From Christensenellales bacterium (lineage in GTDB: Bacteria; Bacillota; Clostridia; Christensenellales; CALWSW01): DNA of 60,671 nucleotides. Location of the stretch: positions 1 through 60,671 of the forward strand of contig JBMNTV010000003.1 in the NCBI GenBank assembly GCA_050945915.1, in the 5' to 3' direction. Positions 3,325-51,232 of the stretch are shown one piece after another (within the stretch, counting starts at the first letter, position 1; each line of letters begins with the position of its first letter). The notes beneath the pieces were generated by a model. The model worked only from the letters and a program-made list of their open reading frames with translations, made no database searches and was not told the origin of the DNA. The translations under genes and the position numbers were made by a program.

Positions 3325-3339
3325 GGCATACCCCCTTGA

Positions 3340-5700
3340 CTATTTGAGACTGACCACCGTCACCCCGGCCTCGCCCTCGCCGTACTGGCCCAGGCGGAAG
3401 TTCGAAACGTGCTTGTGCCGTTTCAGGAAGGATTGAATCCCTGCGCGCAGCGCTCCGGTCCCCTTGCCGTGGATGACGTAAACTTCTTTTAAGCCGGAAA
3501 GAAATGCGCTGTCAATATACCGGTCCACCTCGAGAATCGCCTCATCCACCGTCATGCCGCGGACGTCAATCTCCAATGAGGCGGCGGTGCTTTCCCGCTT
3601 AACAGAGGCGGTGACGCGGTTTTTGACCTTCTCCTTGCCGATCAGCCGCACATCCGCCAGCTTGACGGCCAACTTGAGAATCCCGGCCTGAACGGTGATT
3701 TCGCCCTTGGAATCGGGGGGTGTGAGCACCGTGGCGTCATTGTCGGTGGAAAGCACACGCACCACATCCCCCGGCTGGACGGACTTAGGGGCAGGCGCCG
3801 CAAAAAGGGCGCTCTTTTCATTCCGGGGGGCGGATTCGTCCTGTAACTTGCTTTCGGAAGCTCGAAGTTCGTCCCGCGCTTTTTGGATCGCCCGGCTGCG
3901 ATCGGCTTCGGCGGCAGCGTTCAGAGCCTTCAGCTCCCGGATGATCCGCTCGGATTCCGCCTTGGTTCGCTGCACGATGGCCCGGGCCTCTTCCTTAGCC
4001 TTTTTGATGGCCTTGTCTCGCTGCTCGGCGATGCGCTTTTTTTCCTTTTCGGTTTCGTCCCGCAAGCGGTAAAGCTCCGCCCGGGCTTCCTCCGCCAGTC
4101 GCCTCTCCTGTTCGGCGATGCGCCTTTGGCTTTCTGCGCCAGAAATGGCGTCTTCGAAGGAGATGTCCTTCACCGTCAGGTGCTTGTGGGCGCATTCGAT
4201 GATGTGTTCGGGCAGGCCGAGTTTTCTGGAAATCTTGAAGGCGTTGCTCTTGCCGGGTATGCCGATGAACAGCCGGTAAGTCGGCCGAAGGGTGGTCACG
4301 TCAAACTCGACGGAGGCGTTTTCCATCCCCTCCCGGGTTAAGGCGAAGGCCTTCAGCTCGCTGTAATGGGTGGTGGCCAGGGTGCGCGCCTTCCGGCTGT
4401 GAAGCTCTTCCAGGATGGACATCGCCAAAGCGGCGCCCTCCACGGGGTCGGTTCCGCTGCCCAGTTCGTCCACCAGCACAAGGCTGCCGCCCTCTGCTTC
4501 CTTCAGGAGGTCGACGACGTTCTTCATGTGGGACGAAAAGGTGGAAAGGTTCTGGGCGATGCTCTGCTCGTCGCCGATGTCCGCGAACACGTTGTTAAAT
4601 ACCGGCATTTCGGTTCCGTCCATCGCGGGAAGGAACATGCCGCTTTGGGTCATCAGCGCAAAAAGACCGACGGTCTTCAAGGTCACGGTTTTTCCGCCGG
4701 TATTCGGACCGGTGATGATTAGCGTAGTGAAGTCTTTGCCCAGCCAAAGGTCGATGGGCACCACAACGGCGGGGTCGATCAGCGGATGCCGGCCGCCCAC
4801 GATGCGCATAAAACCCTTTGTATTCAGATTCGGACAGACGGCCCGCATATCCCGCCCGAGCTTTGCCTTGGCGAAGATGACGTCGATCTCGGCGAGCAGT
4901 TCAAAAGACTCCAGCAACGCCGGCGCTTCCGGCGCGATGGCAGCCGTCAGTTCCGAAAGGATGCGCTGGATTTCCTCGGCTTCTTCGGAAAGCAGTTTCT
5001 TCAGCTCGTTGCCGATCTCGACCACCGCCATCGGCTCGATGAACAAAGTGGCGCCGGAGCCGGACTGGTCGTGCAGCAATCCGGGGATCGCCAAGCGGTG
5101 TTCCTGCTTGACGGGCAGGACGTATCTTCCGTTTCGGATGGTGATGATGCTCTCCTGCAGGCAGTTCCTGTACGCCGGGGAATGAATCATGGCGTTCAGC
5201 TTGTCCCGTACCCGGTCGTTGCAGGCGCGGATGGATCTTCTCAACGAGGCAAGTTTGGGGGAGGCGGCGTCCGCCATCTCATCCTCGGTCAGGATGCAGC
5301 GGAAGATTTCCTCCTCGATCCCCCGCGCGGTGTGCAGGGAGATGGCCATGTGATAAAGCCCCGTGGAGCGTTCCTCGTTGGTCAGTGAAGACTTGGCAAA
5401 GCGCATTGCGCGCAGCGCTTTGGCAACGGCCAGCAGTTCCCCCATGCCAAGGGCCAACGTGGCACCGGAACGCTGCAAAGCATCCCGTACGTCCGGAAAG
5501 CTGTCCACGGGGGAACGGCCCAGTCTGGTCAGCTCATCGTCCGCCTCCTGCGTCAGTTGCAAGAGGTTGGCGACATCCGCATGCCCGTTGGCGGGGCGAA
5601 GCATTTTCGCGCGCTCCTTCCCCATCTCCGAGGAAGCGAGCTCCGTCAGCTTTTCGATGATTTTGTCGTACTCAAGTATTTTTAAAACCCTGTCGGTCAT
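3340..5700 (-). CDS. mutS2: Endonuclease MutS2 (MutS domain V ATPase + C-terminal Smr)
   Basis: 786 aa. Motifs are Walker A GPNTGGKT, DELGSGTDP and TTHY, a long charged coiled coil, and a C-terminal Smr domain (VIHGKGTGALR). Confidence 0.95.
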   Translation of the reverse strand: MTDRVLKILEYDKIIEKLTELASSEMGKERAKMLRPANGHADVANLLQLTQEADDELTRLGRSPVDSFPDVRDALQRSGATLALGMGELLAVAKALRAMRFAKSSLTNEERSTGLYHMAISLHTARGIEEEIFRCILTEDEMADAASPKLASLRRSIRACNDRVRDKLNAMIHSPAYRNCLQESIITIRNGRYVLPVKQEHRLAIPGLLHDQSGSGATLFIEPMAVVEIGNELKKLLSEEAEEIQRILSELTAAIAPEAPALLESFELLAEIDVIFAKAKLGRDMRAVCPNLNTKGFMRIVGGRHPLIDPAVVVPIDLWLGKDFTTLIITGPNTGGKTVTLKTVGLFALMTQSGMFLPAMDGTEMPVFNNVFADIGDEQSIAQNLSTFSSHMKNVVDLLKEAEGGSLVLVDELGSGTDPVEGAALAMSILEELHSRKARTLATTHYSELKAFALTREGMENASVEFDVTTLRPTYRLFIGIPGKSNAFKISRKLGLPEHIIECAHKHLTVKDISFEDAISGAESQRRIAEQERRLAEEARAELYRLRDETEKEKKRIAEQRDKAIKKAKEEARAIVQRTKAESERIIRELKALNAAAEADRSRAIQKARDELRASESKLQDESAPRNEKSALFAAPAPKSVQPGDVVRVLSTDNDATVLTPPDSKGEITVQAGILKLAVKLADVRLIGKEKVKNRVTASVKRESTAASLEIDVRGMTVDEAILEVDRYIDSAFLSGLKEVYVIHGKGTGALRAGIQSFLKRHKHVSNFRLGQYGEGEAGVTVVSLK

Positions 5701-17588: not shown

Positions 17589-17604
17589 GTCTTTGCAAAA
17601 AAAT

Positions 17605-17632
17605 GGGACGATTCTGATCGTCCTGTTTTTTA
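17605..17632 (+). terminator. Rho-independent terminator of rplS
   Basis: GGACGAT-tctg-ATCGTCC followed by TGTTTTTT. Confidence 0.85.
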
Positions 17633-17991
17633 TTTCACCTGCTCTTCTTTGATTGGATTATGAAAATTGTGGCAATGTTTAACTCTCTGGGGCCTGAGGA
17701 TCGGAAGTTTGCACTTGGCTTGCTTGATGCAATTCGTCAAGTACCAAATACAAACATATAAGTTGTCGGTCGGTGAGTTCTTGTAATAACACTTCCGTCA
17801 TATTACCGCACCTGCCCTTTCTCCATCTTGCGAACGTCTGTTTGCTGCCATCATAAGAAGGTGAGAGCGATTTGTCAACACTTGGAAGGGAAATTATTTG
17901 GACAGTAACAGATATTTCTTGTATGAAGCCAATTTATCACAAGTTGTGAATGAATTGTCGAATAGATGATGGCTAAAATGTAAAAAAGCGT

Positions 17992-18009
17992 AAAATGAAC
18001 ACAAATTTG
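17992..18009 (+). repeat. Direct repeat, left copy (candidate attL)
   Basis: AAAATGAaCACAAATTTG. It matches 19822-19839 at 17 of 18 positions. Confidence 0.5.
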
Positions 18010-18029
18010 GAGGGCGATTGGAGGCCGAA

Positions 18030-18440
18030 ATGGAAACGTTAAATGTAATAGCGAAGATAGGAATAACCGCTATATATGGCTCGATACTATATGTGATCGT
18101 ATATGCCCTCTTGAAAGGCTATATCATGTATTTGGAAGACCTTAATGTCGAAACAGTAACCAAACAGTTCAAAATTAAATGCGCAATTGCTGTTCCTTTC
18201 GTTGTAGGCGCGTTCGTTTTGGCGGTCTGGATAATCAGATCATTCATTAAGAGCGGCGTTTATGGAGAAAACGCAAGCGGCGCGCTAACCATTATCGCGG
18301 TCATCGTCGCCCTTTTCGGGGTGCTTATAATTCACACTTGCCTGATTACATCAAAAAGATTCTGGAAGGACGCCCAAACCAAAAGGGAAATTGAAGACTT
18401 GCAGTACAAAATTAAAAAGCTAGAAGAAAGCCGTGAATAA
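18030..18440 (+). CDS. Hypothetical 3-TM protein with a C-terminal charged helix
   Basis: ATG 18030 lies 5 nt after GGAGG (the track ORF starts at TTG 18018). It has three hydrophobic helices, then KREIEDLQYKIKKLEESRE. I recognise no family. Confidence 0.55.
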   Translation: METLNVIAKIGITAIYGSILYVIVYALLKGYIMYLEDLNVETVTKQFKIKCAIAVPFVVGAFVLAVWIIRSFIKSGVYGENASGALTIIAVIVALFGVLIIHTCLITSKRFWKDAQTKREIEDLQYKIKKLEESRE

Positions 18441-18532
18441 ATAACACAAGACAAAGGAGGTCATCCGAATGAAAGAAAACCCCGCCCCCTTCTGGCGCCC
18501 AGGAATGCGGGGATGAAAGGAGGTTTTGCTAT

Positions 18533-19732
18533 ATGAAAAGGCAAAAAGACGGGAGGTATAAAAGTAAGGTTGTGGTTGGATATAATGCTGTGGGGGAGCC
18601 AGTAATCAAGTTTATATCCGGTCGGAACCCAAAAAGAGTTTAAGCAGAAGAAAGAAGAAATTCAGCGCCTATACATCACAGGAAACACGGAGCCTACCAG
18701 GCGCGAAGTTCTGTTCGGGGCATATGCTTGGGAATGGTACGAATTGTATAAACTGCCTAAATTGAAAGCAGCCGGCGTTAGTTATTACAAAACGGCGCTC
18801 AATCATATCGTCCCCGTATTTGGAGAGCGGCAAGTACGTTCCATCACTTCGCTTGATTTGCAAAGGTACCTTAATGCACTCGCTGAAAAATACAGTAAAT
18901 CATCAGTCGAGAGAAACTACTCAACCTTGAAGCAGATTTTCAAGCTGGCCACCGCTCAGTACATCATTGACCGTGATCCAATGCTGACAGTGGTATGCCC
19001 TGATGCGCCCGAGGGAAAGCGACGAGCTTTGACAGAAGCCAAAACTGCTGCCGCGCTGTATGTCGCTCGTACGCATAAGTATGGACTTCTCTGGATGCTC
19101 TTGTATTACACTGGCGCCCGCCTGGGCGAAGTTCTGGGACTGCAATGGCAGGACATTAACTTCAAAACACGCGAGATCACTTTTAGACGGGATATTGACT
19201 ATAAAGTTAAGATCGGGAAAAGCAAAGTCGGTGAGGTAAAGTCAGAATACAGCGAACGGACGATACCGATCGCCAACGAACTATATGAGGCGCTCAAAGC
19301 CGCCAGGTGCATCAGCACGTATGTCATTCGGGCACCTAAGAGCGACAGCCATCTGCCGCAATCCACCGCTCAAGATCGTATTGATACCCTTCGCCGAGCC
19401 ATGTATGAGTATGACAACACAATTGAGCATACAGATTCGCCCATGTACTTAAAGCGGCATAAGGACTATGAAAGAAAAAAACGAAAAAAGGAGTAAAGAC
19501 AAGGAAGTTCAAAAAAGAAAGGCCGATTCCACAGGTGTCCGTCATCACCCCCCACTATTTCCGACACAACTTTGCGACCCTCTGCTACTACAACGGCGTG
19601 GATGTGCTGACAGCGGCGGCGTGGCTGGGGCATAAGGACCCGACGATGATCATGAAAGTTTATGCGCATCTGGATAAGACAAAAGCACGTGATCCCGAAA
19701 AAATCAACAACATCTTCCGGGCAACCAGATAG
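18533..19732 (+). pseudogene. Tyrosine recombinase/integrase (phage-integrase family), split into three frames
   Basis: Frame 1 (18533-18643, AGGAGG SD) encodes MKRQKDGRYKSKVVVGYNAVGEPVIKFISGRNPK, an AP2-like arm-binding N-terminus. Frame 2 (open from 18606, ending at 19496) carries the SAM-like core-binding and catalytic regions (YYTGARLGEVLGLQWQDI). Frame 3 (19472-19732) carries ITPHYFRHNFAT...LGHKDPTMIMKVYAH. The frame switches fall at an A5 run (18631-18635) and within the A-rich tract 19471-19520. Confidence 0.8.
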
Positions 19733-19821
19733 GACGGAAAGTTCCGATTTCCCCGTCTTCCTCGAGATGGGGAATTTTTGGGAAGTAGGCAAAAAGTAGG
19801 CGAAACCTCTCTTTTGGAGGC

Positions 19822-19839
19822 AAAATGAGCACAAATTTG
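19822..19839 (+). repeat. Direct repeat, right copy (candidate attR)
   Basis: AAAATGAgCACAAATTTG. It lies just beyond the tRNA-Pro terminator and 90 nt after the integrase stop. Confidence 0.5.
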
Positions 19840-19854
19840 TGTTGGTTTGCAATA

Positions 19855-19896
19855 TAAAAAAGCCCGCAAACCTAGATAACCAGAGCATTTGCGGGC
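19855..19896 (-). terminator. Rho-independent terminator of tRNA-Pro
   Basis: On the minus strand: GCCCGCAAA ... TTTGCGGGC followed by TTTTTT. Confidence 0.8.
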
Positions 19897-19897
19897 A

Positions 19898-19974
19898 TGG
19901 TCGAGGTGACAAGATTTGAACTTGCGACCTTCTGGTCCCGAACCAGACGCGCTACCAAGCTGCGCTACACCTCG
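19898..19974 (-). tRNA. tRNA-Pro (anticodon CGG)
   Basis: Hand-folded 77-nt cloverleaf. The acceptor is CGAGGTG/CACCTCG, the D arm GCGC-AGCTTGGTA-GCGC, and the anticodon arm TCTGG-TTCGGGA-CCAGA. The variable loop is AGGTC and the T arm GCAAG-TTCAAAT-CTTGT. The discriminator is A and CCA is encoded. Confidence 0.9.
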
Positions 19975-21887: not shown

Positions 21888-21985
21888 TGTTAAGTTAAAC
21901 ATAATTAACTATTCACAGCCCACGAACTCTGCTCTTTACCATTCTTTTTTCATCTCTCTGTGAGGGATGTGGCAGGTCGTTCAAT

Positions 21986-22020
21986 CAAAAAAAACAGGAG
22001 CCCATGCGTAAAGCTCCTGT
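21986..22020 (-). terminator. Rho-independent terminator of the orphan 550-aa gene
   Basis: On the minus strand: ACAGGAGC-tttacgcatgg-GCTCCTGT followed by TTTTTTTT. Confidence 0.85.
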
Positions 22021-22031
22021 CTTATCATTCT

Positions 22032-23684
22032 TTATTTTACTTTCCTGGTAGTGTAGTTTTCCATATGTTCACCGCAATGTCCGACGATGATTTTCTGATG
22101 CTTTTCAGAAAAGCCGAAATGGATGCTTTGCTTCAGTTTTGGATAGGTGATATGCGGTTCAATATCGATGATCTCTCCGTCATATTCTGTCTGGAATTGC
22201 CGCATGAGCCTCTTGTCCTTCCGGGTCATGGATCCTTCGCCGCGTTTGCATTCAATTCCGGTGCTGTTTTTAAACTCTTTATAAGGATCGCAATTTCCCA
22301 TGATAAACAGCTCCCGCATTTCCATAGCCAGTGCAAAAAAGACTCTCCATTGTTCGCAAGGATCGAGCTTACAGGTTTTCGCAGACTTATAGGCATCATC
22401 CGAAAAATCAAGCTTTTCCAAAAAGATGTCGCGGAAAAACCTCATCACCGACTCTGGATCATCCGGCAGGCGTTCCAGTCTGCCCCTGTTCTCCAAAGCT
22501 GTTTCCAGTTGCGCGCATTTCCTGGCAGCTGTTTGATAGCTTTGAACTTGCACATTCAGTTTGTAGTTTTCTTCTTTCAGCTCCCTTTTTTCCTCTTCTA
22601 ACGCTTCGATACAATCTTCCAGAAGCAATCGACGCTCTTCTTCTTCGCTCAATATTTCCAGCGCTTCATTCTCAATATGATCCTTTTCTTTTTCAAGCTC
22701 TGCAATGCGCTTCCGCCTTTTGTGATGCTCCTTTAACTTCCTGCATTCCTCGATTCGGAAAAAAGAATCATAAAAGTTGACGTTCTGTGCCAATGCTCTG
22801 CGAAGCATTTGAAGGACACATTCAGACCCCCATTCTTCAATGGAAACGGCTTTGATATACCGATGACGATACGGGTCAGTTTGACTGTCCAAATCAATTT
22901 CGGGATAATAAATTCTGATTGTCCCGCCGTAGCAAGAATACTCTTTGGGACACAGGTACTTCATTTCTTCGGCAAAATCCGGCGAATTTGAAAAGAATAC
23001 AATGGCGTTGCCACAAATAACATCCGCCAGCCTTTCCGGGCAAACAAGCAGACGCGCCTCCTGGGAATCGGGATCAATATACGGACTGACATAAATGTAT
23101 GGAAGCTCGCGGTCTTTATCAATCAACCTGTCCCAGAAGTGTGGCCAGTCCCCCGTTTTCAATTCCTGTGGCGTGCACTCTACTGTATCCCTGCCGCTAT
23201 GACAATGAAGGTTCCTATCTCGCAATATGTGTTTAATCAGATTCGGCGTTGAAAGGCTGGGCGCTTCCTGCAGCAATCCCACAAAACCCGGCGCATCACG
23301 ATAAAAAAGGACGCAGGACAACACGGCAGAAGTTGAATCCTTCTGCTCATACCCAACCTCTGTAACCCACTGGCGCGGCGTATAGCCGGGTAGAGCCGTT
23401 CTCTTCTCGGTGATGCTGCAGGCCCAATACTGTCCGCCCTCATCATTCTCAAAATACTCTGACTTTATAATGATAGAGTTGTCTTCCGAAACAATGGATC
23501 CTCCCTTTTTAAGTCCGGTCCAACTGCGATTTTCGGTTGGAAGAATGTCGTTTTCCCTGTTCCACTTTCTTGTTTGCCAATTTTTGATATGAAGGACGAT
23601 TCTCCAAAGCAGATCATCTTCAGGTTGAATCGCGGTGATCGTGAATTTCGCTTTATAGAACATATTTGCATTAAGATCGAGCAT
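22032..23684 (-). CDS. Hypothetical 550-aa protein (N-terminal globular region, central coiled coil, small C-terminal domain); no family recognised
   Basis: The track ORF is 22032-23705. ATG 23684 lies 6 nt after GGAGGAAAG. It has its own terminator and a long uninterrupted frame in an A+T-rich stretch. See the findings. Confidence 0.75.
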   Translation of the reverse strand: MLDLNANMFYKAKFTITAIQPEDDLLWRIVLHIKNWQTRKWNRENDILPTENRSWTGLKKGGSIVSEDNSIIIKSEYFENDEGGQYWACSITEKRTALPGYTPRQWVTEVGYEQKDSTSAVLSCVLFYRDAPGFVGLLQEAPSLSTPNLIKHILRDRNLHCHSGRDTVECTPQELKTGDWPHFWDRLIDKDRELPYIYVSPYIDPDSQEARLLVCPERLADVICGNAIVFFSNSPDFAEEMKYLCPKEYSCYGGTIRIYYPEIDLDSQTDPYRHRYIKAVSIEEWGSECVLQMLRRALAQNVNFYDSFFRIEECRKLKEHHKRRKRIAELEKEKDHIENEALEILSEEEERRLLLEDCIEALEEEKRELKEENYKLNVQVQSYQTAARKCAQLETALENRGRLERLPDDPESVMRFFRDIFLEKLDFSDDAYKSAKTCKLDPCEQWRVFFALAMEMRELFIMGNCDPYKEFKNSTGIECKRGEGSMTRKDKRLMRQFQTEYDGEIIDIEPHITYPKLKQSIHFGFSEKHQKIIVGHCGEHMENYTTRKVK

Positions 23685-23777
23685 TCTTATCTTTCCTCCA
23701 CCCAATAAAACTTACAAGAACTTCATGCTGCGTATAATAATTGCATATTTTGTCGTTTTCCGCAAATAAATTTAATA

Positions 23778-23799
23778 AGGGAGTCCAAACGGACTCCCT
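23778..23799 (-). terminator. Hairpin terminator downstream of the 7TMR-DISM GGDEF gene
   Basis: AGGGAGTCC-aaac-GGACTCCCT, followed on the minus strand by a T-rich tract (TATTAAATTTATTT). Confidence 0.6.
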
Positions 23800-23906
23800 C
23801 ATACTACTTTTTTATAATTTGTCGATCGATTGTGATTGCGTAAGAGGCGGGCTTAAGCAGCGACGCGCCTGGCGGAAAAGGCTGGTTTGCGCGCATCATC
23901 CGGCTC

Positions 23907-25874
23907 TCAGTGTTCTTCTTGTGCGACCTCGCAGCAGAACTTCACCTGATTCTTGCCCTCGCTCTTTGCTTCATACAGCGCTTTGTCCGTAAATCCGAAA
24001 AGATCCGCGTGGCCCAAATCTTGATTCGGAACCAACGAAGTAACCCCTATGGTTACGGTAACATAGTCGCTTACTGTCGAAGAAGCATGGGGAATACGAA
24101 GCGCTTCAACTTTTTGCCGTAACATTTCGGCTGTTCTCATGGCTTCTTCCTTCTCGGTCTCGGGCAGTAAGACGACGAACTCATCCCCGCCATAGCGGGC
24201 TACCATATCGGTGGAACGGTTTAAAGAATGATTCAGAACCTCTCCGATCTGAACCAGGCACGTATCCCCGGCCATGTGCCCATAGGAATCGTTGAACTCC
24301 TTAAAAAAGTCGATATCCACGAGCAAGATTGCGATGGGTCTTTGATGTCTTAAGCAGCGGCGCCATTCCTTTTCAATCATTTGATCATATTTCCTCCTGT
24401 TCCATACTCCGGACAATTGATCCTTATAGGAAAGTTTTTGCAAGGTCTGATTTGCAATTTCCAACTCTACTTTTTGCTGTTCTATCTGCTCATTTGATTT
24501 TTTCAAATCCTCGGTGCGTTGTAATACCAGTTCATCCAAGTGGGTGTTGATTTCGGTCAGCCTGGCTGTCAGTACTTCTTCCTGATCCAGTGCATCGGAA
24601 AAATTCTTTGCCAACAACAAAGAGTTCAAAAAAGCAAAGATCAGCTGTCCGATGGAGCTTAAACTTCCCGTTCGAATCAAATCCCTTAAAAATGTGGGCC
24701 CGGCATCATTCATCCAAATGCTAAGGAAAATGATATCGTTTGCACTGCTCAATAACAGGGCCGCTCCGCCAAGAAGGATAAACCAACTGCCTTTTTCCTT
24801 ATTGATGGATAATCTGATTAGGGCGACGGTGATATAGATGATTAACAACCCGCTCCAAATTTGATAGATGGGATTGAACAGCGTGAAGATTCTTGCAGGA
24901 GTAAGGAGAACCAACAGCCCGAAGACAGCGCCAACAACCTGAGCTATTCGTATGATCCGCGCGTGAAAATACCGCGGAAACACCGACCTGAAAAACATCA
25001 GGATCAATGGCACGCCGAGATAGTATGTCAGCGTTTGCAGCTTGTGGGCAACTTCCCAACTAAAATCGGGGAACAGATAGATGAAGAATCGTTCTCCTAC
25101 CAAGATCGTCCTGATTCCGATGGAAAGGCAAAACAACCCGAACCATAATGATGAAACATTCTTCTTCCTGAAAAAGAATAGCGCCAGATGATATGCTCCC
25201 AAGCAGATCAAACATGCAAATACGATCAGTTCTCTGGATAGGTCTTCGAACCGCAGCTTTTGCACATACTTTTCTCCCCCCAGATAGATGCTCTCCAACA
25301 TTCCTCCGCTGCGGTGATGGAAATTCGAAACCTGAATGATGATCTCATTCATCCCCGGCTGCGCGTCAATCAAAGCAACTCGGGGGAGATATTGGGGTAC
25401 CATGGATTCCCGCGTCTTGCCCACTTTTCCGGCCGTGGCAGCCAGTTCTCCATTCACCCAGAGTTCATACGCGGTAAACAGCCTTGGGATCTTCAACGCC
25501 AGCCTTGCTCTTTCCTCTATTTTAAACTGAATCCGAAAGGTTGCATAGCCATATCCCGACTGATTTTCGATTTCTGGGATTTTGTTCCAGGAACTGGGGA
25601 TTTGAATGTACCCGGTTAACGTCCCTGCGTCCGTTTCCCCGGGCGACAATATTTGATACCAGTAAAATTCCCACTCTCCGTCTAAAGCGACAGTGTCATT
25701 TTCAAGCCGCACTTGTGTTAAGTCAAGAACTCCCGATTCAGCCTTGGGTTTGATGTTTACTATTTGGCTGGAACAACCTCCTGATATGAACAGCACAAAT
25801 ACGAGCGCAATGATGATTTGCAGTGCATTTTTTTGTAGTTTCAAAATTGATTCTGCTTTCTGATACCGAAGCAT
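23907..25874 (-). CDS. Diguanylate cyclase with 7TMR-DISM extracellular and 7-TM sensor modules (GGDEF)
   Basis: 655 aa. It has a signal/anchor, a ~170-aa extracellular beta-rich domain, seven hydrophobic helices and a coiled coil. The GGDEF domain contains RYGGDEF. Confidence 0.9.
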   Translation of the reverse strand: MLRYQKAESILKLQKNALQIIIALVFVLFISGGCSSQIVNIKPKAESGVLDLTQVRLENDTVALDGEWEFYWYQILSPGETDAGTLTGYIQIPSSWNKIPEIENQSGYGYATFRIQFKIEERARLALKIPRLFTAYELWVNGELAATAGKVGKTRESMVPQYLPRVALIDAQPGMNEIIIQVSNFHHRSGGMLESIYLGGEKYVQKLRFEDLSRELIVFACLICLGAYHLALFFFRKKNVSSLWFGLFCLSIGIRTILVGERFFIYLFPDFSWEVAHKLQTLTYYLGVPLILMFFRSVFPRYFHARIIRIAQVVGAVFGLLVLLTPARIFTLFNPIYQIWSGLLIIYITVALIRLSINKEKGSWFILLGGAALLLSSANDIIFLSIWMNDAGPTFLRDLIRTGSLSSIGQLIFAFLNSLLLAKNFSDALDQEEVLTARLTEINTHLDELVLQRTEDLKKSNEQIEQQKVELEIANQTLQKLSYKDQLSGVWNRRKYDQMIEKEWRRCLRHQRPIAILLVDIDFFKEFNDSYGHMAGDTCLVQIGEVLNHSLNRSTDMVARYGGDEFVVLLPETEKEEAMRTAEMLRQKVEALRIPHASSTVSDYVTVTIGVTSLVPNQDLGHADLFGFTDKALYEAKSEGKNQVKFCCEVAQEEH

Positions 25875-26053
25875 CCATTTGCATCGTTAATACATAGGGT
25901 GTAATCCTTCCTTATCTATTAATTATCGGCCAAATCCTTCGCAACTTTAACTGCAAAGGCTTTTCCCTACAATAATCACGCAAAGCGATTTTTGAGGGGA
26001 GCCGGATTTGGGGCGAACTTCCCTTGCGAAGCGTACGTTCACAGACAAGACTA

Positions 26054-26106
26054 TTGACATATGCCAAAAACTATTGTATCCTAATCCTAATAAATGGCAT
26101 ATGCCA
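26054..26106 (+). promoter_or_regulatory. Promoter of the DUF134 gene with a palindromic operator candidate
   Basis: TTGACA (26054-26059), a 17-nt spacer, then TATCCT (26077-26082). A perfect 12-bp palindrome TGGCATATGCCA lies at 26095-26106. A related ACATATGCCA overlaps the -35 (26057-26066). Confidence 0.5.
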
Positions 26107-26131
26107 ATTATGATTTGAAAGGATGGTGAAC

Positions 26132-26506
26132 ATGGCAAGACCCAGAAAATGCCGGCGCGTCTGTTGCATGCCGGGGAATCGGCACTTCGGCCCACTGGAG
26201 GATCGCAACACGGAACGCATGAGCATCGTCATGACTGTGGATGAGTATGAGACCATCAGGCTGATTGATTTGGAGCGATTGACGCAGGAAGAATGCGCCG
26301 AACGCATGAATATCGCCCGGACGACCGCCCAGGCAATCTATAACAGCGCGCGCAGGAAACTGGCAGAGGCCCTGGTGCACGGGTTGAAGCTATCCATCCA
26401 TGGCGGCAATTACGTCCTTTGCAATGGAGAAACCTCCGGCTGCGGATTCTGCCACTGCCATCCAAGGAGACGCCGCTTTGGAAATGGCAAAAGCAGCGAA
26501 GAATGA
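26132..26506 (+). CDS. DUF134 (UPF0251) predicted DNA-binding protein
   Basis: ATG 26132. It starts MARPRKCRRVCCMPG, the DUF134 signature, followed by a sigma-70-region-4-like HTH (LTQEECAERMNIARTTAQAIYNSARRKL). Confidence 0.85.
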   Translation: MARPRKCRRVCCMPGNRHFGPLEDRNTERMSIVMTVDEYETIRLIDLERLTQEECAERMNIARTTAQAIYNSARRKLAEALVHGLKLSIHGGNYVLCNGETSGCGFCHCHPRRRRFGNGKSSEE

Positions 26507-26628
26507 ACCCAACCACTCCTCCTTGCAGGCGCAGTTTCGCAGAGGATACAGCTGCACGGCTTGCGAATAATCGGTGGGTTGGCGGAAACAACTCTGATGA
26601 ATCGTGAATGAAATGAAAGGAGTCGAGC

Positions 26629-27015
26629 ATGAGGATCGCGGTGGCTTTTGACAATGGCCAAGTGTTTCAACACTTTGGGCATACCAGAAGGTTTAAGGTT
26701 TATGACATCGAAAACGGCAAAATTGCCGTCATGACGACGATCAACACCAACGGCAGCGGGCATGGCGCCCTTGCCGATATTCTGAAAAAGATCGGCGTGG
26801 ATTCCCTCATCTGCGGCGGGATCGGCGCAGGCGCAAAGAGAGCGTTAGCCGAAACGGGAATCAAACTGTACGGGGGCGTATCCGGCGATGCCGACGAATG
26901 CGTAGAACAGTTGCTGGCGGGAAAACTCAAGTTCAATTCGAATGCTGCGTGTGAACATCAAGGCCGGCACCGCGGGGATGCCTGTGGCGGGCATGGATGC
27001 GGGGAACATCCATAA
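26629..27015 (+). CDS. NifB/NifX-family (dinitrogenase FeMo-cofactor-binding-like) protein
   Basis: 128 aa. It starts MRIAVAFDNGQVFQHFGHTRRFKVYDIENGKI, contains ICGGIGAGA, and has a Cys/His-rich tail. It is a common partner of DUF134 genes. Confidence 0.85.
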   Translation: MRIAVAFDNGQVFQHFGHTRRFKVYDIENGKIAVMTTINTNGSGHGALADILKKIGVDSLICGGIGAGAKRALAETGIKLYGGVSGDADECVEQLLAGKLKFNSNAACEHQGRHRGDACGGHGCGEHP

Positions 27016-47861: not shown

Positions 47862-49476
47862 CTTTTCCCTCCATCGACACGGTATTGTCTACGCTGGCAT
47901 CGGGATTGCCGTCAACGATTTCTTCCGTACCATTTTCAGCATCATCATCTTCCTGTTCCGACGAATAATCCAACTCGATAATGGTATCATCCGTACTGGG
48001 GACAACCATTGCCCGTTGTGCCCGTTTGGACTTTATGGAATACACCAATCCGAAGATCTGGAGCGTAATAACCGGAGTCAAAGCTACCAGAGCAACAATC
48101 CCGAATGCATCGGTAAAGATATTCCCGCCCTTCGCTTCAGCAGCTCCGATGGCCAAAGGAAGCATAAATGTCGCCGCCAATGGTCCCGAGGCCACCGCAC
48201 CGGAGTCGAAAGCGATGGATGTAAAAAGATGCGGCACAACAAATGTAAGCAACAAGGCAAACACATATCCCGGAATAACGAAATACAGAAGGGACAACCC
48301 CGTAAGAACGCGCAACATGGCCAAACCCACCGATATCGCCACTCCTACGGACAATCCTATCCCCATCGCCTTTGCCGAGATTGCCCCGCTCGTAACCTCC
48401 TCCACCTGCCTCTTGAGCACGAAAACAGCGGGTTCCGCAGCAACGACAAAGTATCCGATCACCATACCCACCAAGATCAGTACGATGCCGCTGTTGTTTT
48501 CCAGCAGGACGCCTCCGAGTTGATACCCCACAGGCATAAAGCCCACGTTCACGCCAATCAAGAACAAAACGAGTCCCATATAAGTATAGATCGTTCCGAT
48601 GCTGATTTTCAGAATCTTTTTCATTTTAAGTCGAAGCGTAAAGATTTGAAAAACAGCAAACGTCAGAAGCATGGGAAGCAATGCGATCGCTACTTGCTTC
48701 AAATACTCCGGCAAATTGGAGGTGTAAAGCAAGGCGATGTCTGAGACGGAATCCAGGTTCGGAACCGTCATTGCGCTTCCCCCTGAAGGATTAAAGAACA
48801 TGCCCAGAATCAGGACAGTAATGATTGGACCGATCAAACAAAGGGAAGTTAGGCCAAAATTATCCTCTTCCGAAGTTTTATCAGCACGAACCGATGCCAA
48901 GCCAAGTCCCAGGGCCATGACGAAGGGCACCATGATGGGGCCCGTTGTCACCCCACCCGATTCCCAGGCAATGGAAAGAAAATCCTTTCCGGTGAAGAAG
49001 GAGAGGATAAAGGCCAGAACATAACAACCAATCAAGATGCGCGAAAGCGGAATCTGGTATAGGATCCTTAAAAAAGCGCCCACCAACGCCAGGCTCACAC
49101 CGATTGAAACACTCAGGATAATAATAGCGTCAGGCACGCCACTTATCTGCCCCGCCAACACGATCAAATCAGGTTCCGCCATGGTAATGAAGGCGCCAAT
49201 GAAGAATGTCAGAATGATGATCAATGGCAGCTTTCTGCTTTTTACCAATGCGGATCCGACGTGTTTCCCGATGGGGATCAGCGATGTATCCACCCCGAGG
49301 TTGAACATTGTTATCCCCAATATTATTATCACAGAGCTAACCAGAAAAAGTATCAGGTTCCATGCCGGGATTGGCGCTATGGTGTAAGACAGCAGCACAA
49401 CCAGAATCATGATTGGAAAAACCGAAAAGGATGATTCCTTTAGTTTCTCTAACAACAGCTTAAATATTGCGTTCAT
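47854..49476 (-). CDS. DUF1538-type polytopic membrane protein (duplicated) with an acidic C-terminal tail
   Basis: 540 aa with ~12 hydrophobic helices in two similar halves and a C-terminal acidic tail. The family call rests on my recollection of DUF1538 plus its characteristic P-II partner. The SD abuts the ATG, so the start is uncertain. Confidence 0.7.
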   Translation of the reverse strand: MNAIFKLLLEKLKESSFSVFPIMILVVLLSYTIAPIPAWNLILFLVSSVIIILGITMFNLGVDTSLIPIGKHVGSALVKSRKLPLIIILTFFIGAFITMAEPDLIVLAGQISGVPDAIIILSVSIGVSLALVGAFLRILYQIPLSRILIGCYVLAFILSFFTGKDFLSIAWESGGVTTGPIMVPFVMALGLGLASVRADKTSEEDNFGLTSLCLIGPIITVLILGMFFNPSGGSAMTVPNLDSVSDIALLYTSNLPEYLKQVAIALLPMLLTFAVFQIFTLRLKMKKILKISIGTIYTYMGLVLFLIGVNVGFMPVGYQLGGVLLENNSGIVLILVGMVIGYFVVAAEPAVFVLKRQVEEVTSGAISAKAMGIGLSVGVAISVGLAMLRVLTGLSLLYFVIPGYVFALLLTFVVPHLFTSIAFDSGAVASGPLAATFMLPLAIGAAEAKGGNIFTDAFGIVALVALTPVITLQIFGLVYSIKSKRAQRAMVVPSTDDTIIELDYSSEQEDDDAENGTEEIVDGNPDASVDNTVSMEGKDG

Positions 49477-49909
49477 CTCCTTTGTAACAAACTGATATAT
49501 TTTAAAAACATTATTGTTATCGTTGCCATGAAATAAAGGGCAATTCTTTTATATTATAACACATCCAGATGGCTTATAAAAGTAAAATGAGGCTGACTAT
49601 GCTCCCGCAGTCCACGCTTCACGGTCACATCAATACGCCTCCTCTCTCCAGCGAGTCTCTGCTTATTCTGCCACAAAAAATTCCCGCTATGTTCCCGAAG
49701 ACATCGAGGGCGGGTGATACAAGAAGCATTCCCTTTGGTGTTTTTTGGATATAAGCTTGGTATGCGATTGAGAAAAGGGTGTATGCAGTACCAAAAAATA
49801 CGGCATCCTAATCACAGAGGGACGATACGGAAACTCGCATCATCCCTCTCGTTCATAAAACCTTTCATGTGGTACGCACACATAAGGCTAATCAGATAGC
49901 CATCGGACC

Positions 49910-51232
49910 CTACCCTCTTATTGATTTCATCTTAATAAATCCTACAATATCTGCTAAAGCCCAGCCAATGGGTATTGCCCACCATATGCCTATCAGGCCT
50001 ATTGCGGGTGAAAGAGCGTGGGCTAAGATCACCCTTGTTCCAAGACTAATGATGGTGAGGATGATGGACACCCCCGGTTTTCCCATACCTCTGTACAGTC
50101 CATAAAACATAAACAAATATCCTATCAAACAATAAAAACTTGCGACGATGAGTAAGTACTGCATGCCTATTTGGAGAATTTCCGTTTCGTTCGCGTTGAT
50201 AAAAATGCTCATCAAAGGTTTGGCGAACAAGATGATCAGCGCCGAAGCCGCCAAACCATAAACGGTAATAATTTTTACAACTGAACGAATTCCGTTACGG
50301 ATACGCCTCCCCTCTTTTGCGCCATGGTTCTGGGCTATAAAGGTAGAAAAGGCGTTGCCCAACTCCTGTTCGGGCAAGTACGCGAAACTTTCGATCTTCA
50401 CGACTGCTGCGAATGCAGCCATAGCTGATACACCAAAGCTATTCACCAGTCCCTGTATCAGCAGGATTCCAAAATTCATGACAGATTGCTGAATGCTTGT
50501 GAGTATCGAATGACTGCCAATCATTTTCACGATGTTCACATCAAACCGAAAATGCTTGCGTTCCAGACGAAGGATGGGAACCTTTCTGATGCAATACACA
50601 GCCAGGGACACTGCAGAAACCCCTTGCGCAATGATGGTCGCATACGCGGCGCCACCGACGCCCATCTGCAACGGAACGATGAAAACGATATCCAATATAA
50701 TATTCAAGATGGCGGAAAATGCAAGAAACAGCAAAGGTATGATCGTGTTGCCCATACTGCGCAAGATAGCGGCAAAATAGTTGTATGCCGAAGTAAAGGC
50801 AATACCATAGAAAATGATTTGCAGATAAGTCCTTGTTTCCCCCCATACTTCCTGAGGTATCCTAATCAGAGTCAAAATACCATCAATTTGAAAGAGCGCC
50901 AGCAGATTAATCACCAATGTCAGCGATCCAACCAAACAGAAAGAAGCAAAGAAACTTCTTTTCAGTCGATCGATCTCTTTTGCGCCATATAAAATGGAAA
51001 ATACAGTGCTGCTGCCCATGCAAAACCCCAAAATGATGGAGTTCAACAATACCATAACAGAAAAAGAACTGCCAACGGCAGCAAGGGCATTCGGGCCAAT
51101 GAATTTGCCCACTATTATTGTGTCTGCAACATTATATAATTGCTGAACCAAATTCCCAATAATCATAGGTACCGCCAACTTTAGCAGTACCTTCATTTCA
51201 TTTCCCTTTGTCAAATCGTGCGTTATTGCCAT
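49910..51232 (-). CDS. MATE-family efflux transporter
   Basis: 440 aa with 12 TM. The N-terminus LLKLAVPMIIGNLVQQLYNVADTIIVGKFIGPNALAAVG is typical of MATE/NorM proteins. Confidence 0.93.
   Translation of the reverse strand: MAITHDLTKGNEMKVLLKLAVPMIIGNLVQQLYNVADTIIVGKFIGPNALAAVGSSFSVMVLLNSIILGFCMGSSTVFSILYGAKEIDRLKRSFFASFCLVGSLTLVINLLALFQIDGILTLIRIPQEVWGETRTYLQIIFYGIAFTSAYNYFAAILRSMGNTIIPLLFLAFSAILNIILDIVFIVPLQMGVGGAAYATIIAQGVSAVSLAVYCIRKVPILRLERKHFRFDVNIVKMIGSHSILTSIQQSVMNFGILLIQGLVNSFGVSAMAAFAAVVKIESFAYLPEQELGNAFSTFIAQNHGAKEGRRIRNGIRSVVKIITVYGLAASALIILFAKPLMSIFINANETEILQIGMQYLLIVASFYCLIGYLFMFYGLYRGMGKPGVSIILTIISLGTRVILAHALSPAIGLIGIWWAIPIGWALADIVGFIKMKSIRG

Follow-up and report, generated by a model that had tools for sequence, protein, structure and literature searches.

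A solitary HEC-07-like gene of a Christensenellales bacterium encodes a candidate single-gene anti-phage protein with a predicted RelE-like RNase domain

HEC-07 (Hma-embedded candidate 07) is a single gene that was found embedded in Hma systems (Payne et al. 2024, bioRxiv 10.1101/2024.01.29.577857). Its tested representative is a protein of 549 aa from Pseudomonas aeruginosa NCTC13717 (WP_033943166.1), which, according to the authors, begins with an AdoMetDC-like domain, continues with a thioredoxin-like one and ends in a RelE-like (HP0892-like) domain whose histidine H543 is conserved. Seven of nine candidates, expressed alone in E. coli, lowered the plaquing of at least two phages, and the E. 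coli strain used for HEC-07 had no restriction-modification (R-M) systems; as the inactive candidates were HEC-01 and HEC-09 only, HEC-07 was active. In PADLOC-DB the family is represented by the models PDLC04158-04161. Here we describe a distant relative of HEC-07 encoded on contig JBMNTV010000003.1 (assembly GCA_050945915.1) of a Christensenellales bacterium, of which positions 1 to 60,671 were analysed (60,671 nucleotides, designated below as the window).

The HEC-07-like gene is located on the minus strand at 22032..23684 (stop codon included) and its product has 550 aa, as judged from the list of open reading frames (ORFs), the sequence itself, the starts of homologues, PADLOC and hhalign. 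The PADLOC model PDLC04161 matches residues 81-546 of this protein with model positions 86-553 of 553 (E 1.5e-32), and a second HEC-07 model, PDLC04160, matches with E 8e-11. When a profile of 54 relatives was compared by hhalign with 33 aligned members of the tested P. aeruginosa subfamily, the two were collinear over 485 columns (residues 21-546; probability 99.4%, E 3.5e-21) at an identity of ~17%. At the level of sequence, the assignment of the gene as a distant HEC-07 member of a Bacillota/Actinomycetota type is secure. Pfam, NCBIfam and PDB sequence searches with the full protein returned coiled-coil noise only; a precomputed Pfam label (PF28159) is a weak match to the coiled coil of "CEP89" and was discarded as a spurious coiled-coil artefact. 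A preliminary description of the locus had regarded the gene as an orphan of no recognisable family, which is incorrect, as it belongs to a large family already modelled in PADLOC. Its proposal of a stand-alone, single-gene defence protein composed of a sensor-like N-terminal part, a coiled coil and a small effector is borne out by the HEC-07 match. It is a genuine gene of the defence type, though the system it represents is of a known kind.

With clustering at 50% identity, an exhaustive search yielded 635 clusters at E<=1e-30, a number that rises to 2414 at E<=1e-10; nearly all of the best 150 matches listed are full-length proteins of 540-620 aa. Because of these 635 clusters and of 91 full-length homologues from a word-indexed search, the ORF is, on the strength of its conservation, a real gene far beyond chance. 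A motif-limited scan of 185,579 species (one genome per GTDB species) revealed the gene in 15 species of two phyla, a count that is a lower bound and covers the window subfamily only; these are Oscillospiraceae and other Clostridia, Acetatifactor, and Eggerthellaceae (Adlercreutzia, Enterorhabdus). Furthermore, a 529-aa HEC-07 member, matched by a hidden Markov model (HMM) of the family with E 5e-30, is encoded on IncFIB plasmids of Klebsiella (~111 kb, nine Klebsiella records).

The genomic position of the homologues differs by lineage, and no two lineages share one. A conserved syntenic core position in all relatives, which would have spoken against a defence role according to the preliminary description, is clearly not what is found. 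The homologue is located after thrS in one case (L001) and between guaA and bacA in another (L006). In other genomes it is found in the vicinity of defence genes, e.g., adjoining an Abi_2 gene and a RelB-family gene (L003), after a PLD-helicase gene with methyltransferases and an AIPR gene nearby (L005, the same as L025), between hsdR and hsdM with gaps of ~12-20 nt (L007, L014, L015), or directly after a different hsdR (L013). In the 15 genome loci, PADLOC and Pfam scans both show components of type I R-M systems more often than any other kind of neighbour.

The AlphaFold2 model of the full protein, built on 54 homologues, has a mean predicted local distance difference test score (pLDDT) of 88.4. 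The preliminary description had recognized an N-terminal module of ~330 aa; this region is present, but in the model it consists of two domains, residues ~1-135 and 145-300. The N-terminal α+β domain (residues 1-135, 23280..23684, minus strand as for all features of the protein) shows the order β-α-α-β5 at pLDDT ~90-96, and the middle α/β domain (residues 145-300, 22785..23252) is delimited by the model and by conservation in 207 relatives. The central coiled coil proposed earlier corresponds to a linker of two long helices, residues 311-335 and 339-402 (311-402 in all, 22479..22754; pLDDT 64-85). It is followed by a helical subdomain (residues 410-475, 22260..22457), seen in the AlphaFold2 models and lying within the region matched by an NsnC model (residues 362-541), and by a RelE/BECR-like β-sheet core (residues 476-550, 22035..22259), the predicted RNase effector, defined by the domain model, Foldseek and the NsnC models. 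In the full-length model this core contains a five-stranded sheet (residues 485-540). A Foldseek search of the PDB with the full-length model gave weak matches to helix-grip proteins (Bet v 1/START, PYR1, the catalytic domain of a Rieske oxygenase; best E ~2e-3), which we assume to fall on the N-terminal domain, and nothing meaningful was obtained against viral structures. With the middle-domain profile, the PDB returned only L7Ae/Snu13/eL8, at a sub-threshold E of 0.2 and at the PYIYIS motif.

The fold of the C-terminal domain was followed up with a separate model (pLDDT 90.7). Most of the best 20 Foldseek matches of this model in the PDB are RelE, YoeB, HigB or HP0892 toxins, among them Mycobacterium tuberculosis RelE2, E. 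coli RelE (including the ribosome-bound form), the RelE proteins of Thermus thermophilus and Pyrococcus horikoshii, Staphylococcus aureus YoeB, Helicobacter pylori HP0892 and HigB; the RelE/ParE-like nature guessed earlier for this domain is in agreement with these best fold matches, though their E values are weak. Moreover, several PADLOC models of NsnC match the C-terminal part, i.e. PDLC03912 (E 3.4e-8, residues 362-541), PDLC03914, PDLC03908 and PDLC03899. Taken together, the consistent Foldseek list, the matches to the NsnC models and the published assignment for HEC-07 make a RelE/BECR fold of the C-terminal core likely. Searches of PDB and Pfam with a profile of the C-terminal domain revealed nothing significant, and in a large protein collection the same profile recovered nothing but truncated members of this family, without any other architecture. 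No ATPase family, ABC-ATPase or P-loop was detected in Pfam, NCBIfam and PADLOC searches or in the AlphaFold2 model.

Conservation was counted in an alignment of 207 full-length representatives to the HMM of the family. All 207 have T487, H511 and H540, which are thus invariant; position 488 is R, K or H, and at least 205 of the sequences retain W87, W106 and R192. The near-invariant residues of the N-terminal domain are W36, W87, R104, W106 and E109; those of the middle domain are basic or aromatic (R192, R257, Y259, H274, R275). Most of them have an invariant counterpart in HEC-07: the pairs (window protein/HEC-07) are W36/W48, W87/W88, R104/R102, W106/W104 and E109/E107 in the N-terminal domain and R192/R184, R257/R247, Y259/Y249 and H274/H263 in the middle domain. 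The two candidate catalytic residues are His511 (CAT, 22152..22154), which aligns with the invariant H509 of HEC-07, and His540 (CAT, 22065..22067), which aligns with H543. H511 is on a strand of the core and H540 just after the last strand, a placement that we take to be like that of the catalytic histidines of YafQ and YoeB. The equivalent of H540, H543, is invariant in the 33-member proteobacterial HEC-07 alignment as well, in which T487 and R488 are not conserved; it is also the histidine singled out in HEC-07 by Payne et al. (bioRxiv 10.1101/2024.01.29.577857). The mean pairwise identity is highest in the sheet core (53%) and lowest in the coiled coil (27%), and the segment equivalent to the coiled coil varies in length from 77 to 180 residues across relatives. 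Relatives that match in two stretches, which gave the appearance of effector swaps, have longer coiled coils and an unchanged C-terminal module.

The gene is located between a flavoprotein gene and a GGDEF gene, as described before. Its ORF extends to a stop codon at 22032-22034 from either TTG 23705 (the longest reading) or ATG 23684. The latter is the likely start, because the sequence GGAGGAAAG is present at 23699-23691 and homologues start with MxDLN at the equivalent place. This Shine-Dalgarno sequence (23691..23699, minus strand), read directly in the sequence, has a GGAGG core that ends 10 nt before ATG 23684. A consensus scan identified a terminator-like hairpin with a T-run (21981..22023, minus strand; 13 pairs, a loop of 7 and a T-rich tail; 22023-21991 in the scan output), which begins 9 nt past the stop codon, and a further hairpin at 23775..23802 (minus strand; 12 pairs, 6 of them G-C) belonging to the upstream GGDEF gene, which is predicted to insulate the HEC-07-like gene from read-through. 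The ribosome-binding site, the gene's own terminator and the neighbour's terminator in front of it were thus all found as the preliminary description had proposed, and with terminator-like hairpins on both sides the gene looks monocistronic. No sigma-70-like site passed the consensus scan in the 90-nt gap upstream of the gene (23685-23775). No small partner ORF is present beside the 550-aa fusion gene, as judged from the ORF list and the terminators on both sides.

With 45.3% GC and a GC content at third codon positions (GC3) of 0.50, the gene is more A+T-rich than the window (52.3% GC) and its typical core genes (GC3 0.64-0.79), in line with the earlier impression. However, this composition is not peculiar to it: comparably low values are seen in the GGDEF neighbour (46.1% GC, GC3 0.54) and in the integrase region, so that the low-GC patch (~17.6-26 kb) is wider than the gene. 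The window copy is identical in four contigs, in which the order is always GGDEF gene, HEC-07-like gene, flavoprotein gene, and its sequence is present in metagenomes that many studies obtained from anaerobic digesters and bioreactors. For the GGDEF neighbour, the closest relatives are only 76% and 65% identical and lie on contigs that are non-syntenic or too short. Scans of the other 47 ORFs of the window revealed no recognisable defence system beside the HEC-07-like gene.

The best overall explanation is, in our judgement, that the gene probably encodes a latent HEC-07-type single-gene anti-phage protein whose RelE-like RNase stops translation. The protein would be produced from its own monocistronic unit and stay latent, with the two conserved N-terminal domains acting as sensor and regulator that keep the nuclease off until a phage cue arrives; to this part would belong the helix-grip-like N-terminal domain and the conserved basic patch of the middle domain. 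The coiled coil of variable length may be a spacer or an oligomerisation element, and the helical subdomain together with the RelE/BECR-like core would form the endoribonuclease, with His511 and His540 in its catalytic centre. Upon phage infection, the N-terminal part would release or activate the RNase, which would cut mRNA on the ribosome, or another RNA involved in translation, so that protein synthesis would stop. Phage production would be blocked, but the infected cell would cease to grow or die. For the RNase activity and its RNA target, as well as for autoinhibition, the trigger and the abortive outcome, this model draws on what is established for RelE-family toxins and on the analogy with CapRel-type fused toxin-antitoxins and CARF-RelE proteins. 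For HEC-07 and the window protein alike, it is by such reasoning that we infer abortive infection.

Several observations weigh against this proposal. The matches to RelE-type folds are weak (E 0.07-1; template modelling scores of 0.45-0.52, normalised to the target), and no Pfam or PDB sequence profile of RelE, ParE, YoeB or HigB matches the protein or the profile of its C-terminal domain. Pairwise BLASTP of the protein with residues 1-399 of the tested HEC-07 (WP_033943166.1, 549 aa) is not significant, so the function is carried over from HEC-07 across a large distance; also, no mutational test of the HEC-07 histidine was found reported in the accessible text of the preprint (Payne et al. 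2024). The N-terminal domains are well conserved and not hypervariable, unlike many phage-sensing domains. Finally, the window copy is solitary, flanked by the flavoprotein and GGDEF genes in a window that otherwise contains mainly housekeeping genes, and in four metagenome runs the sequencing depth over the gene and its flanks is even, with no joint that skips the gene.

The main rival to this reading, which we consider unlikely, is a PrrC-like guard, i.e. a latent RNase that would be held by a type I R-M complex and freed when an anti-restriction protein of a phage disables the complex. It would account for the homologues nested between hsdR and hsdM (L007, L014, L015) or following another hsdR (L013), for the prevalence of type I R-M components among the neighbours in the 15 genome loci and for the discovery of HEC-07 within Hma systems. 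Yet the window copy and those of L001, L006 and L008 have no R-M genes nearby, the window gene is bounded by terminators of its own, and there is no ABC-ATPase or P-loop as in PrrC and RloC; furthermore, HEC-07 cloned alone protected an E. coli strain without R-M systems. A selfish addiction gene is improbable. In this case, the protein would carry its own antidote, with the N-terminal part acting in cis on the RelE-like toxin. The gene would have no phage-defence role in the host and would be maintained through post-segregational killing or simply as a mobile passenger. The RelE-like effector fold, the patchy distribution across phyla (with a plasmid-borne member) and the solitary copy in a low-GC patch near a tRNA-Pro gene and an integrase are consistent with this, but the enrichment of family members beside R-M and Abi genes and the reduced phage plaquing reported for a family member argue against it, and a single polypeptide cannot provide the differential stability that addiction needs.

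The least probable of the explanations considered here is a factor involved in housekeeping or stress RNA processing, or associated with the ribosome, in which the middle domain would bind RNA in the manner of L7Ae and the C-terminus would serve as a regulated RNase. The L7Ae/Snu13/eL8 match at PYIYIS, the strong conservation of all globular domains and the location of several copies between housekeeping genes would fit; however, an E of 0.2 is not significant, the motif-limited scan gave only 15 species among 185,579, lineages do not share the genomic position, the composition is atypical for the host, and the homologous HEC-07 has defence activity. A more far-reaching possibility, which we regard as doubtful, is that the HEC-07 family represents a new class of immune RNase sensing RNA or the ribosome and acting, in the R-M-embedded copies, also as a PrrC-like guard. 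The basic patch of the middle domain (R192, R257, H274, R275), with the weakly L7Ae-like PYIYIS, would then bind structured RNA or the ribosome, the ligand of the helix-grip-like N-terminal domain would be a small molecule or a phage protein, and the copies embedded in R-M loci would fire when restriction is inhibited. If true, one protein would join direct sensing with the guarding of another immune system and would use a RelE-type effector without antitoxin. It is very improbable that the RelE-like domain is catalytically dead and acts by binding, e.g., as a stoichiometric block of ribosomes or of a phage component. For such a role speak the lack of recognisable classical RelE/YoeB catalytic residues and of any match to a RelE-family sequence profile, as well as the variability of T487 and R488 in the proteobacterial subfamily; however, the two histidines are invariant across both subfamilies, and their placement presumably resembles that of the catalytic histidines of YafQ and YoeB.

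In the hsdR-X-hsdM-hsdS cassettes of L014 and L015, two different species-level genomes, and of the metagenome contig L007, HsdR and HsdM are 92-95% identical and HsdS only 44-87%. As the HsdS proteins diverge while HsdR and HsdM are 92-95% identical, the cassettes seem to exchange their specificity around an embedded gene that stays constant. On the Klebsiella pneumoniae plasmid NZ_CP097699.1 (L031), the HEC-07 member is annotated as a 529-aa "hypothetical protein" (49355-50944), and its neighbours are phage-like (dnaE, HNH endonuclease, 5'-3' exonuclease), which suggests that the carrier is a phage-plasmid. The sole match in the phage collection, MT839861.1 (L032; "Bacteriophage sp.", an unverified 6.8-kb contig), in which the homologue reads through as a 797-aa ORF, was not counted as a phage copy: its other ORFs encode Lgt, a polysaccharide deacetylase and an NAGPA-type glycosidase, so it is probably bacterial DNA. 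In a metagenome-assembled genome of Eubacteriales (L023, 3325-4943), two overlapping ORFs (3325-4416 and 4383-4943) share the homologue between them, which is either a frameshifted pseudogene or affected by an assembly error. Directly upstream of two homologues, there are pairs of large uncharacterised genes that could be further defence candidates: in L003 (10-9242) for a protein of 2182 aa and, after it, one of 816 aa that has matches to Spermine_synth and a mad2-like methyltransferase, and in L017 (3292-9881) for a 1824-aa AAA_22 protein followed by a 373-aa protein. A functional link to the flavoprotein was considered and rejected: FAD_binding_2 proteins are encoded near four Eggerthellaceae copies, but they are 24-26% identical, 2-6 kb off and not adjacent.

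Elsewhere in the window, a tRNA-Pro(CGG) gene (19898-19974, minus strand) has on its 3' side an integrase gene and a 140-aa low-GC ORF (18018-18440), directly after the core rpsP-rimM-trmD-rplS block; this region (17600-19974) looks like a small remnant of an integrative element. The HEC-07-like gene was not assigned to this element, because the integrase is on the 3' side of tRNA-Pro and the gene on its 5' side. The tyrosine-integrase gene (18744-19732, plus strand) is interrupted, with 250 aa and 65 aa encoded in separate frames. At the homopolymer ~19468-19474, 7 A are present in the window and 8 A in contig L010 and in a contig of run X3, both of which encode an intact 329-aa integrase, and the split reflects either a homopolymer assembly error or true frameshift variation. 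When the other 47 ORFs were pooled and scanned with PADLOC, there was one match each to a type II nicking endonuclease (1.3e-31), PDC-M43B (8e-11), a TIR effector (7e-7) and SduA/DUF4263 (2e-6). As none of the ten low-GC ORFs that were re-scanned accounts for them, these four matches are in ORFs of core-like composition; they may be cross-hits. In one bioreactor metagenome (run X10), four joints (24913-26804) skip 454-739 bases, lying inside the GGDEF gene and across DUF134/NifB-like genes; each is found in a single contig with a short side of 21-31 letters, and the joints may reflect related strains or chimeric assembly.

That a gene of this kind exists does not come as a surprise any more. 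The findings extend HEC-07, tested so far only with the Pseudomonas gene, to strictly anaerobic Clostridia and Eggerthellaceae of digesters and guts, and allow the contig annotation to be changed from "hypothetical protein" to HEC-07-like candidate anti-phage RNase. Comparison across phyla narrows the essential residues down to two histidines in the RelE-like core and to tryptophan, arginine and histidine residues in the N-terminal domains. Together with the variable coiled coil, these invariant residues are handles on how a RelE-type RNase may stay harmless without an antitoxin, and on its trigger.

As modelled, the core of the window protein has a layout of a helix and an antiparallel sheet that resembles, by weak fold matches, toxins of the RelE/ParE superfamily (RelE, YoeB, YafQ, HigB, HP0892). 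The C-terminal histidine just after the last strand is presumably a feature in common with YoeB and YafQ. The window domain differs in being fused to ~400 residues, in its extra helical subdomain and in the lack of an antitoxin gene; as it is a fusion, has no antitoxin and matches no sequence family of these toxins, the window protein is not a classical RelE/ParE toxin. In CapRel(SJ46)-type fused toxin-antitoxins and in CARF-RelE (Cami1), a sensor in the same polypeptide holds a translation-targeting toxin off until a cue is received. These analogies are conceptual only. The toxin of CapRel(SJ46) is a RelA/SpoT-like pyrophosphokinase and the one proposed here is RelE-like; moreover, the sensor domains of CapRel(SJ46) and Cami1 are unrelated to those of the window protein, which has no CARF domain. 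PrrC and RloC, anticodon nucleases in type I R-M loci, are comparable insofar as several relatives of the window gene likewise nest the gene for a latent (predicted) RNase between hsd genes, but there is no homology, no ABC-ATPase domain and another nuclease fold, and the window copy is not linked to R-M genes.

NsnC, the effector of Menshen, has C-terminal domains that are mostly BECR RNases (PB-BECR-type), and its archetype possesses an H-R-H triad (Li et al. 2025, PMC12065111). The window protein shares the C-terminal BECR-type effector module, with R488, H511 and H540 as the conserved set corresponding to the triad, and differs in its N-terminal part, which consists of two domains and a coiled coil. 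Since nsnA (ParB-DUF262) and nsnB (ABC ATPase) are missing, the gene is not a Menshen nsnC: no NsnA or NsnB match was found among the other 47 ORFs of the window, and the neighbours encode the GGDEF protein and the flavoprotein.

The closest described system is HEC-07, which is of the same length class (~550 aa) and has the same collinear order of N-terminal domain, α/β domain, coiled coil and RelE-like C-terminus; both are single genes, and relatives are embedded in other defence operons. The fold search performed here points to a helix-grip-like N-terminal domain, in contrast to the AdoMetDC-like and thioredoxin-like domains of the HEC-07 authors, both assignments being weak. The two differ also in the TRKD motif (T487, R488), which is invariant or nearly so in the window subfamily and absent from the proteobacterial one, and in their hosts, which are anaerobic Clostridia and Eggerthellaceae versus Pseudomonadota. 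Furthermore, the window copy is solitary, neither embedded in nor adjoining other defence systems. This does not bar it from membership in HEC-07, as embedding was the criterion of discovery rather than a functional requirement.

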